Assembly (NCBI GenBank): GCA_016204385.1
Contig: JACQKW010000003.1
Span: 1-32,584 of the forward strand
DNA length: 32,584 nt
Reading direction: 5' to 3'
From: Candidatus Liptonbacteria bacterium
GTDB taxonomy: Bacteria > Patescibacteriota > Minisyncoccia > UBA6257 > 2-01-FULL-56-20
A program made the translations under genes and the position numbers. Below are positions 1-11,325 of the stretch, one piece after another. Under the pieces are notes generated by a model. That model was not told the origin of the DNA. It searched no databases and was given only the letters and a program-made list of their open reading frames with translations. Each line of letters opens with the position of its first letter. The stretch's first letter is position 1.

Positions 1-1
1 C

Positions 2-87
2 GTCCTTCGACTTCGCTCAGGACTTTTTCCGACACGGAGGGAACCCGGTGGCTTTCCCTCCGACCCACCCTTCGGTTCGAATCCCTG
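2..87 (+). repeat. GACAC-hairpin-GACCC element copy E0 with antisense copy of the tRNA-Gln T-arm (left end may lie outside window)
   Basis: TTCCGACAC-[GGAGGGAA..TTCCCTCC]-GACCC at 27-66 aligns with the element at 10207-10246(-); GGTTCGAATCCCTG (74-87) is the exact reverse complement of 151-164. Confidence 0.7.
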
Positions 88-100
88 TCGATAACTTAGA

Positions 101-138
101 TACTGAAACGCCTGCCAAAATTGGCAGGCGTTTTAGTA
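101..138 (-). terminator. Hairpin downstream of tRNA-Gln, probable intrinsic terminator
   Basis: TACTGAAACGCCTGCCA-AAAT-TGGCAGGCGTTTTAGTA near-perfect 17-bp inverted repeat directly 3' of the tRNA. Confidence 0.65.
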
Positions 139-142
139 TTAG

Positions 143-213
143 CTGCCGGGCAGGGATTCGAACCCCGATAAATACCTTCAAAGGGTACTGTCCTACCATT
201 AGACGACCCGGCA
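143..213 (-). tRNA. tRNA-Gln(TTG)
   Basis: Minus strand folds as a cloverleaf: acceptor TGCCGGG/CCCGGCA, D-loop AATGGT, anticodon arm GTACC-CTTTGAA-GGTAT, T-loop TTCGAAT, discriminator G; CCA not encoded. Confidence 0.95.
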
Positions 214-266: not shown

Positions 267-752
267 ATGAGAAAAAACAACAAAACGTTCGTCATCATCT
301 TCGTAATCGTGGCGGCGGGCATAGTGCTCTTGGGATACCGCAGTTTCGTTCCCTCGGGCGGCGCGGGCACCGTGCCCTGCAACAATCCTGCGATACCAGA
401 TTCTCCAAATCTCCATTTGCATCCCCAGCTCACCATTATCATAAACGGTGAGCAGGTGCGCATTCCGGCTAATCTCGGCATAGAGTTTGCGGGATGCCAC
501 CGCGTGCTCCACACGCACGACGAGACAGGAGTAATTCATATCGAGCCGGACTTTGCCGGGGATTTTACGCTCGGACAATTCTTCGATCTCTGGGGAAAGC
601 CGTTTTCGGAAACACAGATTCTCGACCGCGTGGCTGACGAGAAACATGAAATCATACTGACGGTGAACGGCGAGCCGAGCACGGAATATGAAAACCTACT
701 CCTCAAAGACAAACAAAATGTTGTGATTGAATACCGTGGCACCAGCGAATAA
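267..752 (+). CDS. Membrane-anchored conserved hypothetical protein with His-rich putative metal site
   Basis: N-terminal TM helix; HLHPQL...IPANLGI...C..LHTHDETGVIHIE motif; TGCTATAAT upstream at 229-237. Confidence 0.8.
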   Translation: MRKNNKTFVIIFVIVAAGIVLLGYRSFVPSGGAGTVPCNNPAIPDSPNLHLHPQLTIIINGEQVRIPANLGIEFAGCHRVLHTHDETGVIHIEPDFAGDFTLGQFFDLWGKPFSETQILDRVADEKHEIILTVNGEPSTEYENLLLKDKQNVVIEYRGTSE

Positions 753-771
753 CGAGTTGTATATTTGCATT

Positions 772-806
772 ATTCGTATCATTAGTACCATTCGTATATT
801 AGTATC
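772..806. repeat. ATTCGTA/ATTAGTA 8-9-nt periodic repeat (half array)
   Basis: ATTCGTATC ATTAGTACC ATTCGTAT ATTAGTATC; related to arrays at 6088-6165 and 29522-29600. Confidence 0.6.
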
Positions 807-812
807 GATACC

Positions 813-1301
813 ATGAAGCTCATCGGTTTTCTCTCGAAAATCCTTCCCACGGTCACCGCCGAGGCCCATTGCGACATCCCGTGCGGCATCTACGACCCTA
901 CTCCCGCGAAAATCGCCGCAAAAACCGTGCAGAAAATGGTGATGCAGCTCGGCGAGCTCAAAGTTCCCGAGGAAATGGATACGCACACCTTGAACGCGTA
1001 TCACAATGCGGTCATGCGCCGCGTTGCCGTAAAAGAAGCGCACGCGGAAACCTGCAAGCGGGAGCTCTCCATTCTTTGGTCTGATTTTTTCAAGCCGGAA
1101 CACGTGAAAAAATTTCCTGCCCTCCACGAAACGTTCTGGAACGCGTTAAAGCTTTGTTCAAAAAATAAACAAGAGGTAAACGACGTGCTCGCGAAAGAGC
1201 TGGTGTCGGCGGTGGACGACATTGCAAAAATATTTTACGACGCAAAAGGTGATCCGAAACGCTATGATGCCTACAAGGAAATCACCGACAAGCTTTTTTA
1301 A
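813..1301 (+). CDS. sodN: Nickel superoxide dismutase precursor
   Basis: 18-aa propeptide followed by the Ni-hook HCDIPCGIYDP; downstream LWSDFFKPEH segment. Confidence 0.95.
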   Translation: MKLIGFLSKILPTVTAEAHCDIPCGIYDPTPAKIAAKTVQKMVMQLGELKVPEEMDTHTLNAYHNAVMRRVAVKEAHAETCKRELSILWSDFFKPEHVKKFPALHETFWNALKLCSKNKQEVNDVLAKELVSAVDDIAKIFYDAKGDPKRYDAYKEITDKLF

Positions 1302-6087: not shown

Positions 6088-6165
6088 GATACCAATATAC
6101 GAATTGTACTAATGATACGAATGAACATTATTTGTATCATTCGCATGCATTAGTATATTGGTATC
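6088..6165. repeat. Long imperfect hairpin built of TACGAAT/ATTCGTA-like periodic units
   Basis: GATACCAATATACGAAT...ATTAGTATATTGGTATC inverted arms between divergent rpmA and exonuclease gene. Confidence 0.7.
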
Positions 6166-6173
6166 GCATAATT

Positions 6174-7699: not shown

Positions 7700-10171
7700 C
7701 TACGCCTTTTTCTCCATCGGCGGCGTGTAGCGCCGAAGCAAAAGCGAATTCGTGACGACCGACACAGAACTTAGCGCCATCGCAAATCCGGCGATCTCGG
7801 GCCGCAAGGTCGCCTGCGAGAGATTGAAGAAAATCTGCCCGATGCCGGAACCGAGCGCATTGCGCGCGGCGAGTATCCAGTCTGACGGCACGCCGAAGGA
7901 CGATTGCGTGAGAAGCAAATGAATGCCTCCCGCAATCGGTATCGCGATGATGTTGTAGATGAACGCCCAGAAGAGATTTTGCCACACCTTCTTGATGGTC
8001 TTTTTGGAAAGCTGGATCGCGGTGACCACGTCGCGGAGGTCATCCTTGACCAAAATCACTTCTCCGGTCTCGATCGCTACGTCCGTGCCCGAACCGATGG
8101 CGATGCCCACCTCCGCCTGCGCGAGGGCAGGGGAGTCGTTGATGCCGTCGCCAACCATCGCAACTTTTTTACCCTCCGCTTGGAGTTTTTTCACGACGTC
8201 CGCTTTCTGCTGGGGCAAAACCTGCGCGAGATAGCGGTCAATGCCAAGTTGGTGCGAAATTGCCTCGGCGGTTTTGGGGTTATCGCCCGTGATCATGATA
8301 ATTTCCTTGCCCATTTTCTTTAATCCCTCTATCGCCTCATGCGCGTGAGGTTTCAAAGTATCCGCGAGCGCGAGAATGCCGATAATTTTCTTCTCTGACG
8401 CCAAAAATACGACGGTTTTCGCCTCTCTCTGTAATTTTTCCACATCCACCTCGAATTCCTTGATATCCATTCCCAAACTTTCAACGAACGCGCTGTTGCC
8501 GATATGCACTTCCTTGTTCCCGATTTTTCCCTTCACGCCCAAACCCGCCACCGCCTCGAAATCGGTCACTTTGGGGAGCTCGCCGATCTCCGCTTTCGCT
8601 TTCTCCACGATCGCGCGCGCAAGCGGATGTTCGGAGCCCGTCTCAAGCGCGCCTGCAATCGCAAGCGCATCTTTTTTATTCATATCCCCAACCACCATAA
8701 AATCGGTGACGTTTGGCTTCCCGATCGTGAGCGTCCCCGTCTTGTCAAATGCAACGGTCGTAATTCTGTATGATTTTTCAAGCGCTTCGCCGCCCTTGAG
8801 AATTATGCCGAAATTGGTCGCGCGGCCGATGCCCACGATGAGCGCTGTGGGCGTGGCTAACCCCAAAGCGCAGGGGCAAGAGATCACCAAGACCGCGATC
8901 ATGCGGAGGAGGCCCGCACGGAAGGGGAGACCTGCCCCGAAATACCACCCCGCAAAGACCGCGATCGAGAGCAGGACCACGGCGGGCACGAAGTATTCGC
9001 TGATTTTGTCCACAAGATTCTCGATAGGCGCTCGCGACGCCTGCGCTTCCTCCACCATCCGCACCACCTGATAGAGGAACGTGTCTTTGCCGACCTTCGT
9101 TGCTTTGAAGGTTATCAAACCCTCCTGATTGATGGATGCGCCGATCACTTCGTCGCCCACGGTTTTCGAGACCGGATACGACTCGCCGGTCACCACTTTC
9201 TCGTCAATGTGGCTTTTTCCTTCGGTGATCATCCCGTCCACGGGGATCTTTTCGCCCGGCCGGACCACGATAAGGTCGCCTTCCTTAAGCTGGTCTACGG
9301 GCACAAGCTCTTCTTTACCGCCCTTCAGAACATGCGCCTCTTTTGCCTCGAGTTTCAAGAGTTCTTTGATGGCGTTCGATGCCCTTCCCTTTGCGCGCGC
9401 TTCGAGAAATCTTCCGAGGAGAATGAATGACAGAAGCGCCGCCGAGGACTCCCAGAACGGGTGGTCAATGTTAAAGAAAAGAAATCCGATTGCCGAGTAG
9501 AAGTACGCGGCAGAGGTCCCTAAGGCGACAAGCACATCCATGTTTGCCGAGCCCACGCGGATGGAGGTGAAGGAATTGCGGTAAAACGGCCACGCAATCA
9601 CAAACTGTATCGGCGTGGAGAGCACCCAGTAAATATAGTTCAGATCTATCCGAAACGGGGGATTCGCCACATTCACGAAAATGCCCGCGATGGCTTTTGA
9701 TGGTTGCGCCACGATCCAGAAAAGGTAATTCGTAAAGAATGAGCCGTATGCGGCAAATCCCTCCCCGGTGAGCGACGGCTGGCGGAGATTCAGAAAATCA
9801 AACAATTCATGCACATGCGTTACGTTGAACATGTGGATGAGCATATAGTAGAGGATGATGGGCGCGGAAATGACGAACGCGGCAATCACGCGGCGCTTTG
9901 CCTCCTCGATCTGGCGCGCTTCTTTTGCCTCCTCGTCCGCGGGCGTCGCTCCGGCTTCATCCGGCCGGATGAGGTCATAACCCAGCTTATTGATAAGCTC
10001 ATCAATCCGCGTGAGCGTGATCTTCGATTCGTCGAACTCGATCGCCACCTTCTCCGCGCCGTAGCTCGTCGTGATGGACGTGATGCCCTCCTGCTTGCCG
10101 ATCAATTTATCAATCAAGACCGAACAGGAAGCGCAATGCATTCCTTTAACTTTTAAAATATATTTACTCAT
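7700..10171 (-). CDS. copA: Cu(I)-translocating P1B-type ATPase
   Basis: N-terminal GMHCASC HMA, TGES, CPC in TM, DKTGT, SEHPLA, GDGIND, YN..IP and MALSS Cu(I) signatures. Confidence 0.95.
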
Positions 10172-10389
10172 CGTTGTGTGTTAAAGGAATGCATTGCGCC
10201 GAAGAAGGGGTCGGGAGGAAAGTATGAAGTTCCTCCCGTGTCGGAAGACCCCGCCTCCGGCGGGGGAGCTAGAAACCCCGCCTTCGCCCAACGGCTACGG
10301 ACGGGCAGGCAAGGGTGTCTAAGGAGTTTTGAGCGGCAGTCGAAAGACGACGCACAATGCATTCCTTTCACCTTGAGAACGTATTTCAT
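10168..10389 (-). repeat. GACAC-hairpin-GACCC element copy E2 between a duplicated copA 5' end and copA; open as a 73-aa ORF overlapping the copA start (ATGA)
   Basis: 10180-10199 is a perfect 20-bp inverted repeat of 10131-10150; 10348-10389 encodes [14 protein letters not shown] versus Cop[16 protein letters not shown]. Confidence 0.8.
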
Positions 10390-10391
10390 AT

Positions 10392-10862
10392 CTACTGGGT
10401 CTCCGAAATTATGCTCCTCACATGCATCTTCCCGATTTGATCAAAATGCCCGCGCTTTTCTCCGGCATATGCTCCGCCCTCCACCACGCCGCCCGGGAGT
10501 ATCGAGCTGTCGCCGCAGGGAACGGAGCAGTAATAGGGGAAATCGCCGACCTGCGTCGCGACAAATTCGGCTTTTATAGTCTGGTTCGCGGGCACCCGCT
10601 GGGAAATGCCGAATGCGTCAATCGAGAATCCGTGGTCAAAATCATCTTCATTGACGACGGTAAGAATAATTTTATCTCCGCGTTCAACCGTAATTTCCTC
10701 GGGGTCGAATGTCCAATGGAGCTTCCGCGCGGTAATTGTAATCTCGCGGACGTTTCCCGTTGTAACCGGCGCGGACTCTTCCGACCGGATAAACGCGGTA
10801 TAGGCGATTCCACCTCCGATGATGACAATTCCTACGATGATGAGCCAAAGGTATTTGTTCAT
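10392..10862 (-). CDS. Membrane-anchored cupredoxin-domain protein
   Basis: N-terminal TM; FDPEEITVERGD, HGFSI, YYCSVPCG...GHFDQ (CuA/COX2-like fold motifs). Confidence 0.85.
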   Translation of the reverse strand: MNKYLWLIIVGIVIIGGGIAYTAFIRSEESAPVTTGNVREITITARKLHWTFDPEEITVERGDKIILTVVNEDDFDHGFSIDAFGISQRVPANQTIKAEFVATQVGDFPYYCSVPCGDSSILPGGVVEGGAYAGEKRGHFDQIGKMHVRSIISETQ

Positions 10863-10925
10863 AAATTCAAAATTCTAATATCTAAATTCTAAACAAATTA
10901 TAAGCAACAAATTCTAAACTCTAGA
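10863..10925. repeat. AAATTCT-type heptamer array (downstream arm of four-helix-bundle gene)
   Basis: AAATTCA AAATTCT AATATCT AAATTCT AAAC...; inverted relative to 11269-11325. Confidence 0.75.
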
Positions 10926-10927
10926 CA

Positions 10928-11293
10928 TTACTTTGATTTCTCTATTATTGAGCCGAGGATTTTCATAAGTTCTGTTGACTCTTGAATAAGCATTTCTTGT
11001 TCATGGCGATTTTCTTCTCCTGGCTCCGCGAGTCTTAGCCACAGCCTACTCTCCTTTGCCTCCTTTTTGGAAATCTTAGCTCGCATAAGAAAATCCTTCT
11101 TACTTAGAGATTCGTTCGCTTCGATATAATTCGCGGCAACAGAACCAGCAGATCGGACAAGTTGCTTGCCGTTTTCGATATTCGGTATGGTCTTCGGCAA
11201 TTTGTTCACGTAATTATTCACACGTTTTGCAAAATTCAACGTTCGTTCCTCAAGATTATAATTGCCTCGTTTGGAATTTGGAATTTCGCCCAT
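10928..11293 (-). CDS. Four helix bundle protein (23S rRNA intervening-sequence protein family)
   Basis: LEERTLNFA, QLVRSAGSVAANYIEA, KKEAKESRLWL motifs. Confidence 0.9.
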   Translation of the reverse strand: MGEIPNSKRGNYNLEERTLNFAKRVNNYVNKLPKTIPNIENGKQLVRSAGSVAANYIEANESLSKKDFLMRAKISKKEAKESRLWLRLAEPGEENRHEQEMLIQESTELMKILGSIIEKSK

Positions 11294-11325
11294 TTGGGAT
11301 TTGTTTAGAGTTTAGGATTTCGGAT
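11269..11325. repeat. Inverted heptamer array (upstream arm of four-helix-bundle gene)
   Basis: ATTTGTTTAGAGTTTAG (11299-11315) is reverse-complementary at 16/17 nt to 10882-10898. Confidence 0.75.

Follow-up and report, generated by a model that had tools for sequence, protein, structure and literature searches.

The first bases of the window, by which we mean the whole 32,584-nucleotide stretch of DNA analysed here, raise the question of why a small structured segment beside a tRNA-Gln gene should carry an inverted copy of part of that same gene. The window is one whole contig, with base 1 at the contig end, and the segment, which we call E0 (window 1-164, plus strand), carries a GACAC-hairpin-GACCC core. 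A first-pass annotation had read it as one copy of a scaffold that is re-programmed for different targets, here bearing an antisense copy of the tRNA T-arm, and had pointed to a similar core before copA.

Organization of E0 at the tRNA-Gln locus

Because the window begins at the contig end, the left side of E0 is cut off. What remains is arranged as follows, where T is the intact gene end, T' its displaced direct copy and invT an inverted copy.

1..23, plus strand: remnant of the left module of E0, a 5-bp hairpin (2-6 with 19-23), cut by the contig start
24..35, plus strand: linker TTTTTCC-GACAC, from family alignments, with GACAC at 31-35
35..62, plus strand: core hairpin, with closing pair C35-G62, purine strand 36-43, loop 44-53 and pyrimidine strand 54-61
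63..72, plus strand: AC turn, then the mirror tail CCACCCTT (65-72), proposed from co-variation as the third strand of an intrastrand triplex
74..89, plus strand: invT, inverted copy of the tRNA-Gln T-loop and T-stem (74-87 exact, 88-89 lengthening the pairing in the fold)
90..141, no strand given: spacer with a 19-bp hairpin (99-117 with 122-140), from the fold, common to occupied tRNA-Gln loci
142..165, minus strand: T, the functional tRNA-Gln 3' end through the T-loop, that is, the restored target
142..213, minus strand: tRNA-Gln, anticodon ttg, a tRNA match at the Rfam gathering score

The E0 stem is formed by GGAGGGAA (36-43) with TTCCCTCC (54-61), 8 bp in all, with GACCC at 62-66, and these features, together with the short hairpin, GACAC and a 14-mer at 74-87, all stand where the first-pass annotation had placed them. 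The 14-mer is indeed the exact reverse complement of 151-164, with no mismatches, and the tRNA 3' end and the 19-bp hairpin (99-140) sit between the two repeat arms; when the region is folded as a single strand, 74-89 pairs with 149-164 around hairpin 99-140 (z = -9.0). What did not survive was the idea of an antisense RNA directed against the tRNA. As tRNA-Gln is encoded on the minus strand, 74-87 has the tRNA's own sense and is an inverted DNA repeat, and any plus-strand RNA made from it would not be antisense to the tRNA.

E0 is without the first hairpin typical of the family described below, and the contig start has also removed T', the displaced copy of the tRNA end, along with some 10 nt of the element. 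At a relative locus (L086) an identical 5-bp hairpin is preceded by T', and in genome G016 the displaced tRNA-Gln 3' end lies directly left of the element, corresponding to the part missing from E0. The displaced direct copy of the tRNA 3' end envisaged by the first-pass annotation is present at the corresponding tRNA-Gln loci of five relatives, whereas in the source genome the contig ends at this point and no other contig holds the copy.

A simple promoter and terminator scan of positions 1-400 called nothing, the 19-bp spacer hairpin included. We also considered a plus-strand tRNA or tmRNA with E0 as its 3' portion, and rejected it, since the T-stem partner is absent and ARAGORN calls none there. 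Among public runs, the stretch is present in four runs of one study, as short, uninformative contigs with no usable joint or empty allele at either copy and no sign of a circular or single-stranded form.

A family of related elements in Patescibacteria

The second core in the window (10208-10242, minus strand) is found upstream of copA, whose product is a P-type ATPase with an N-terminal HMA domain, and its stem differs from that of E0 by two compensatory pairs. The bare GACAC...GACCC pattern is not significant alone, giving two matches against 0.76 expected, with at least two also found in 15 of 100 shuffles. Searches with the core pattern returned two further copies among 61 relatives, 24 stretches in metagenome contigs and 20 stretches in a species-level genome collection; 12 of the latter, all from Patescibacteria, were judged true members, and the remaining 8, from other phyla and without the rest of the element, were judged to be chance. 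After 6 duplicates had been dropped, this pattern set held 35 distinct copies. A covariance model, R1, was made from 29 of them; E0, the copA copy (E1) and four others were excluded because they have no plain first hairpin. R1 scores E0 at 54.1 bits (E 1.9e-8) and E1 at 52.8 bits (E 3.5e-8), so that both copies are recovered by a model that contains neither, a stronger test than the bare pattern.

The source genome has 12 matches to R1 at E up to 1, one of them in front of dinB. Within the taxonomic family, 87 of 125 genomes have matches (E up to 0.01) and the maximum is 17 in one 0.6-Mb genome, while in a phylum-wide sample only 7 of 151 genomes do, the source genome included. Near-identical cores are found at different targets in different genomes; the copies inside the source genome are diverged from one another, and so give no sign of recent activity. 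In Rfam 15, with riboswitches, ribozymes and omega-RNAs included, only the tRNA was found at gathering score, the two copies queried at E up to 10 gave nothing relevant, and a phage collection held no match to the element. Group I introns, HDV-like ribozymes and riboswitches were each considered and rejected, there being no fit by eye to their consensus features and no Rfam support. E0 is one copy, truncated where the contig starts, in a patescibacterial family of protein-less elements about 100-250 nt in length.

Three copies of the target in well-preserved elements

In nearly every well-preserved copy the order on the element strand is T', body, invT, spacer and then T, which runs into the gene body. 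T' is a direct, displaced copy of the gene end and T the intact gene end; invT starts 7-9 nt after GACCC, and the spacer between invT and T, often a long hairpin, ranges from 3 to about 190 nt. An opposite-strand tRNA gene lies within 130 nt of 42 of the 77 unique copies, with 14 tRNA kinds represented. The invT/T repeat score is at least 10 in 45 of the 77 copies and at least 12 in 33 (14 in E0), compared with shuffles (20 per locus) in which a score of 10 was reached at 4 of the 77 loci and 12 at none. The 3' segment thus complements a nearby downstream sequence in these 45 copies, whereas the other 32 have no clear inverted repeat, which counts against the first-pass reading; some of the 32 are nested, cut by contig ends or decayed, and some form a subtype at the extreme 3' end of same-strand tRNAs. 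For the direct repeat we used the 44 copies with an invT/T score of at least 10 and enough upstream sequence, and in 28 of these the T'/T score is at least 12, a value that no shuffle reaches.

Protein genes are targets as well. The elements are found at the last 7 or so codons of rpsI (L003, L071, L074, L079 and L081), in the WYDNE region near the end of gap (L072 and L076), at the GMHC motif at the start of HMA/copA genes (the source window, L019 twice and L060) and at the start of dinB in the source genome. With the 14 tRNA kinds, these sites uphold the earlier proposal that one scaffold serves different targets and is not copper-specific. At 3'-end targets the gene points toward the element and at 5'-end targets away from it, the gene body lying always on the element's tail side in both cases. 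Orientation thus follows the position of the gene body and not the direction of transcription, which argues for a process at the level of DNA. Read by eye from the loci, the targets have no common motif at the junction, and so an Xer-like site-specific enzyme does not fit and recognition must come from the carried copy; the target appears to be found through a copy of its sequence rather than through a fixed protein specificity.

The copy at copA, E1, retains both ends of this arrangement:

10351..10389, minus strand: T', the displaced copA 5' end, from the ATG to the Cys codon of the metal-binding motif
10201..10350, minus strand: element body, with left module, first hairpin, extra hairpin and core hairpin (10213-10237)
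10210-10212, minus strand: GAC
10202-10209, minus strand: mirror tail
10180..10199, minus strand: invT, an exact 20-nt inverted copy of copA codons 8-14
10131..10179, minus strand: spacer, which contains the working copA start codon (10169-10171), and T (10131-10150)

The first hairpin of E1 is split by a nested palindromic insert at about 10279-10311. T' and T of copA encode the same peptide and differ at synonymous third positions, with GC-rich, host-like codons in T' and AT-rich codons in T; the synonymous differences mark two diverged gene ends and not a fresh duplication. Judged by these codons, T' and T are the resident and the incoming gene end, respectively. The three-copy layout with its displaced gene end is an insertion scar and not the design of a regulator.

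The crossover point and the mobile unit

In 32 of the 42 tRNA-side copies, T' and T agree along the acceptor and T-stem, and T' then switches at the stem/loop boundary. The sequence that follows the switch is typical of the element subtype, whatever the local T-loop, being AAT(C/T)TC(A/C)C-like in 21, ..CGAAC-GTCG-like in 9 and interrupted in 2. This makes T' a hybrid, with target sequence outside and element sequence inside, and it has a conserved 2-nt change inside the stretch that matches invT. The invT segment at tRNA targets matches the local functional T and is about 15 nt long; by eye it is centred on the stem/loop boundary and takes in loop, stem and 2-3 acceptor bases.

The spacer hairpin beside T is common to five occupied tRNA-Gln loci in five genera (the source genome, G016, G134, G074 and G088), and is absent from the 9 empty tRNA-Gln loci of the family, which have unrelated flanks. 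Its presence at occupied and not at empty loci indicates that the spacer travels with the element. The restored target is also struck repeatedly, as nested and tandem units (L030, L034, L041, L044 and L065) stand in the order expected if a new unit enters at the junction between T and the gene body. Different body subtypes are also found on one tRNA-Gln spacer, which requires an extra step, either body exchange or gene conversion, that the model proposed below does not explain. We say, then, that the mobile unit is made up of the body, invT, the spacer and the outer part of the target, joined by crossover in a short shared segment.

Structure of the element body

Pairing was counted over 82 matches (79 distinct rows) in an alignment fitted to the R1 structure, which favours that structure; across the two helices 97.4% of the cells are paired, against 87.1% after column shuffles and at most 69.5% with the partners slid. 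Changes on both sides are seen in 13 of the 18 pairs across the two helices, and in the family alignment the core-hairpin helix has changed on both sides at 7 of its 9 pairs. Only about 6 of 1393 cells hold G.U pairs, a near-absence that fits pairing of DNA more than it does a typical RNA family. The TCC-GAC/TAC-AC part of the linker is near-invariant across the family alignments.

The tail that follows the core hairpin is a mirror image of the hairpin's pyrimidine strand and co-varies with the stem. A stem of GGAGGGAA, as in E0, is accompanied by the tail CCACCCTT, GGGAGGAA by CCCTCCTT, GGAAGGAA by CCATCCTT, GGGGAGA by CCCCTCT and, in 3 of 4 rows, GGAGGGGA by CCACCCCT; by our count, matching tails occur on at least five separate stem variants. 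The mirror rule (G to C and A to T, in parallel register) holds in 260 of the 309 cells of 40 distinct gap-free types, compared with 104-199 in slid registers and 99 in the antiparallel register. When the tails were shuffled among types (n = 2000), the mean was 217 (sd 5.9) and none of the 2000 reached 260, a comparison in which the types, being related sequences, are not independent events.

Purine/pyrimidine blocks with mirror symmetry are the signature of an intrastrand triplex, and triplexes of the purine motif do not need acid pH. At level 3 of the element stem, 14 of the 15 types with an A-T pair have an A in the tail, which is odd for the plus strand; in the minus-strand reading, all common triads are canonical for the purine motif (G.GC, A.AT and T.AT). 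The core has three consecutive blocks that could form canonical triads in register, as triplex motifs do, and the co-variation makes it probable that this part of the element is an intrastrand triplex. Three-way co-variation of this kind is rare comparative evidence for an intrastrand triplex that is biologically maintained.

A proposed mechanism and its alternatives

How might such a layout arise? The reading we prefer, which we would back about as readily as doubt, is that of a gene-free integrative element that carries a copy of its target and, by analogy with CTX, integrates as folded single-stranded DNA. Crossover would occur inside the short target segment (the stretch of about 15-20 nt that invT copies), the resident gene end would be pushed aside to become T', and the element-borne copy T would complete the gene. 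The acting form would be a folded single strand of DNA, with invT paired to the target copy that the element itself carries; spanning the crossover point, invT would serve to present the target or to splint it. The half of invT that complements the loop would stay free to pair with the chromosomal target, and the degenerate loop copy at the left end of the element could pair with the other chromosomal strand, such that both new joints would be splinted. One strand pair would be exchanged and replication would fix the insertion, with the body (two co-varying hairpins and the probable triplex) perhaps acting as a handle for a host or trans-acting enzyme. A splint role in the proposed fold would explain why invT exists, its length and its centring, and the folded single-strand model would also account for the hybrid nature of T', for its conserved 2-nt change and for pairing statistics that look like those of DNA.

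As to candidate enzymes, the source genome (80% complete) has no match to tyrosine recombinase (PF00589), nor to Y1 transposase, IS110 transposase or TnpB (PF01797, PF01548 and PF07282); it has one large serine recombinase, one reverse transcriptase and six GIY-YIG matches, and four of its five small GIY-YIG genes adjoin tRNA genes. The element can be present without small GIY-YIG genes and without reverse transcriptase: genome G104 has 10 element matches with one GIY-YIG match and no reverse transcriptase match, and G088, G003 and G139, with 12-17 element matches, likewise have no match to reverse transcriptase. We rejected models that rely on reverse transcription or a tRNA primer, as they predict strand orders that differ from the observed order and as element-rich genomes have no reverse transcriptase match (G088 with 17 element matches, G003 and G139 with 12 each, G104 and G134 with 10 each, G081 and G076 with 9 each). 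Snap-back replication, also rejected, predicts a spacer that is the reverse complement of the left flank, and by eye the complementarity stops about 15 nt into invT.

A bolder form of the folded-strand reading, decidedly doubtful in our judgement, would be a self-templating, gene-free insertion system in which the triplex handle and the invT splint use host enzymes only, on any carried target of 15-25 nt. If this were true, retargeting would amount to rewriting the copy, which would explain why a single scaffold is found at 14 kinds of tRNA and at four or more protein genes.

Several other explanations bear on the same observations. The six GIY-YIG matches of the source genome, with four of the five small ones abutting tRNA genes, and the presence of GIY-YIG genes near occupied tRNA-Gln loci in G134 and G016 would suit homing by double-strand-break repair, in which a trans-acting nuclease, for example a small GIY-YIG enzyme, cuts the empty target and the occupied allele is copied, invT being a by-product or an immunity device. 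The tandem re-insertions would suit it too, and the combination of a replacement end and a displaced resident one is what free-standing homing genes leave behind. We nevertheless consider break-repair homing unlikely, since there is a single GIY-YIG match, presumably UvrC, in G104 (10 element matches), G028 (6), G069 (5) and G067 (4), and since it leaves unexplained both the strong conservation of a non-coding body and the existence, fixed length and crossover centring of invT. The same elements might instead be old, immobile scars, with the body kept as an insulator, terminator or structural DNA element at gene ends and spread only via transformation and homologous recombination through conserved flanks. 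The divergence of the copies within the source genome, the ultra-conserved targets, which would permit recombination across lineages, and a partner enzyme that was not found would all accord with this, but tRNA-Gln is occupied in some genera and empty in others, units are found nested and in tandem, near-identical cores sit at differing targets across genomes and a 0.6-Mb genome holds up to 17 matches, all of which makes immobility very unlikely.

The arrangement of a scaffold followed by 15-20 nt matching the target, with many targets served by one scaffold and the conserved 2-nt change of the displaced copy falling inside the guide-matching stretch, also brings to mind an RNA-guided system, the body being an RNA scaffold and invT a 3' guide (5' on the other strand) for a nuclease or transposase. 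Such a guide, however, would lie wholly on one side plus the loop, and would match the restored target as well, so that occupied sites would be cut. With no TnpB-type match in the source genome, no Rfam match, an orientation unrelated to the direction of transcription and G.U pairs near-absent, we think RNA guidance most unlikely. Harder still to credit is a cis-regulatory leader in which alternative pairing (T'/invT or invT/T) controls the downstream gene, the reading that takes up the programmable antisense idea of the first-pass annotation. The copA start codon does fall within the invT/T hairpin, and T' there is part of a short open frame, yet this explanation fits only the copA and dinB copies, whereas most copies flank opposite-strand tRNA, rpsI or gap genes, beyond the reach of control within the same RNA, and no riboswitch family matches.

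Under the preferred reading of an integrative element that carries its target, the spare gene end brought by the element means that the target is not killed. With as many as 17 matches tolerated at the ends of essential genes in ultra-small genomes of 0.5-1 Mb, the element is a major shaper of genomes in these bacteria. It also breaks assemblies, as in the source contig, which ends inside a copy. If the mechanism holds, the element would amount to a compact insertion device of natural origin that can be reprogrammed.

Comparison with known systems

Free-standing homing endonuclease genes bring a replacement gene end with them, as in the fungal mitochondrial atp6 case. The elements resemble them in that a foreign gene end replaces the resident one and the displaced fragment stays behind, as in copA, where T' and T differ synonymously; however, the units of 100-250 nt have no nuclease gene and only a read-through frame of the displaced gene start. 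Williams reportedly described in 2002 integrative elements and islands that enter tRNA genes and supply them with a new 3' end. With such islands the elements share the T-loop crossover, the flanking direct repeats of the tRNA 3' end and a tRNA that is left intact, but they have neither integrase nor cargo, they add an inverted copy of the target, and the same body is found also at the 5' and 3' ends of protein genes.

The omega-RNAs of TnpB and IscB resemble the element in having a structured scaffold with some 16 nt of target-matching sequence immediately after it. Here there is no TnpB/IscB match and no Rfam match, and the matching segment is an inverted copy of neighbouring sequence, not the flank as such. 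Bacterial MITEs and palindromic elements, such as Correia, RUP, ERIC and RPE, are like the present family small, non-coding, multi-copy, rich in hairpins and tolerated in or beside genes. They differ in that the repeats flanking our elements (T' and invT) are not fixed ends, varying by locus and following the local target, and in that the element has no short target duplication of fixed length, its direct repeat being 15-40 nt and reaching the gene end. A survey of MITEs in prokaryotes (PMC11602168) is silent in its main text on Patescibacteria, CPR and triplexes, and in the literature on Patescibacteria/CPR, tRNA insertion, MITEs and triplex elements we found no description of the element, so that a large family has apparently gone undescribed.

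For the triplex, the closest parallel is in enterobacteria, where, according to the portions of Holder et al. 2015 available to us (PMC4666352), abundant intrastrand triplex repeats (TMECO/BoxC) fold stably in vitro. Like those repeats as that text presents them (PMC4666352), the element is multi-copy and has three consecutive mirror-symmetric purine/pyrimidine blocks on one strand, and its minus strand gives only G.GC, A.AT and T.AT triads. In contrast to the TMECO/BoxC repeats of that text (PMC4666352), the motif is here a predicted module of a larger element that copies its target, and its first loop is of 5-10 nt.

For the insertion, the closest parallel is CTX. In the available parts of two accounts (PMC3089051, PMC3442271), the single-stranded CTX genome folds two opposed dif-like sites into a forked hairpin, at which XerC exchanges one strand pair, and replication completes the insertion; the first of them, in those parts, places attP1 and attP2 in opposed orientation about 90 bp apart and has integration leave one functional dif and two non-functional copies (PMC3089051). 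Set against CTX and IMEX as so described, invT and T of the element make up two opposed target-like sites with a short spacer, as found in 45 of the 77 copies. The integrated state is likewise a working T with a dead T' and a dead invT, two of the three CTX copies being inverted, and a mismatched region is present at the crossover. Where CTX and IMEX, in these accounts, use dif with XerC/XerD, the element targets tRNA T-loops and the ends of protein genes; it is moreover gene-free, of 100-250 nt and known here from sequence alone, in a source genome with no tyrosine recombinase match. Beyond these systems, what is new is the covariance model and the spread of the family that it reveals, a hybrid T' whose crossover falls at a fixed point, a spacer that moves along with the element, the co-variation of the mirror tail with the stem, and the CTX-like reading of the element.

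Genes and repeats around the element copies

The two element copies in the window, one beside tRNA-Gln and one upstream of copA, lie among the following genes.

Window 267-1301: 161-aa frame, then nickel superoxide dismutase (PF09055), directly adjoining tRNA-Gln
Window 10392-10862: cupredoxin-like protein, upstream of the copA element copy
Window 10928-11293: 121-aa frame matching PF05635 (23S rRNA intervening-sequence protein, Avd-like four-helix family)

No Pfam match was found for the 161-aa frame within 267-1301. In the contigs of two public sequencing runs, ∼390-405 nt are missing at window 10895-11301 and are replaced by 4-35 other letters, a gap that takes out the 121-aa frame; this PF05635 gene is apparently carried by only part of the population.

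The same GC-rich palindromic insert of ∼33 nt was observed in the copA copy and in a further copy of the element in front of dinB. It occupies the first hairpin's loop in each, and is apparently a second repeat of smaller size, nested within the element.

Window 10279-10311, minus strand: palindromic insert, copA element copy
Source genome (G000) C6:46631-46748: dinB element copy, with the palindromic insert

The AT-rich intergenic stretches at window 770-812 and 6090-6170 are both made of ATTCGTAT/ATACGAAT-like words. Public-run contigs connect the one stretch to the other, and their summed depth at these stretches is very high, with >1200 for one bin, so that numerous organisms of the sample must share the motif, which may serve as an operator or promoter.

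Recombinase and GIY-YIG genes

The only serine recombinase of G000, a 554-aa frame, has a weak match to the covariance model of the element (30.6 bits) a few hundred bases away (C15:6391-6825 and C15:8720-8815). The same genome carries four small GIY-YIG open frames of ∼80-90 aa each, counted from the first Met, at 0-90 nt from tRNA genes (Gln, Tyr, Val and one tRNA at a contig end), and a fifth such domain is fused within a longer frame.

C6:38286-38504, C14:25278-25478, C7:73589-73798 and C12:25004-25198: small GIY-YIG frames near tRNA genes
C8:183387-183593: GIY-YIG domain within a 193-aa frame

Most genomes of the taxonomic family carry several copies of such small genes, with a maximum of 12 matches per genome.

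Replacement of the tRNA-Gln end

At the tRNA-Gln loci of two other genomes (L106, G019:C1; L111, G126:C11), a longer displaced tRNA-Gln fragment, which includes the whole T-arm and more, lies left of an intact tRNA-Gln at a distance of ∼45 nt, and the acceptor stem of the intact tRNA-Gln differs from that of the fragment. Neither locus holds any copy of the element family, and the arrangement is another kind of tRNA-end replacement than that of the element family.
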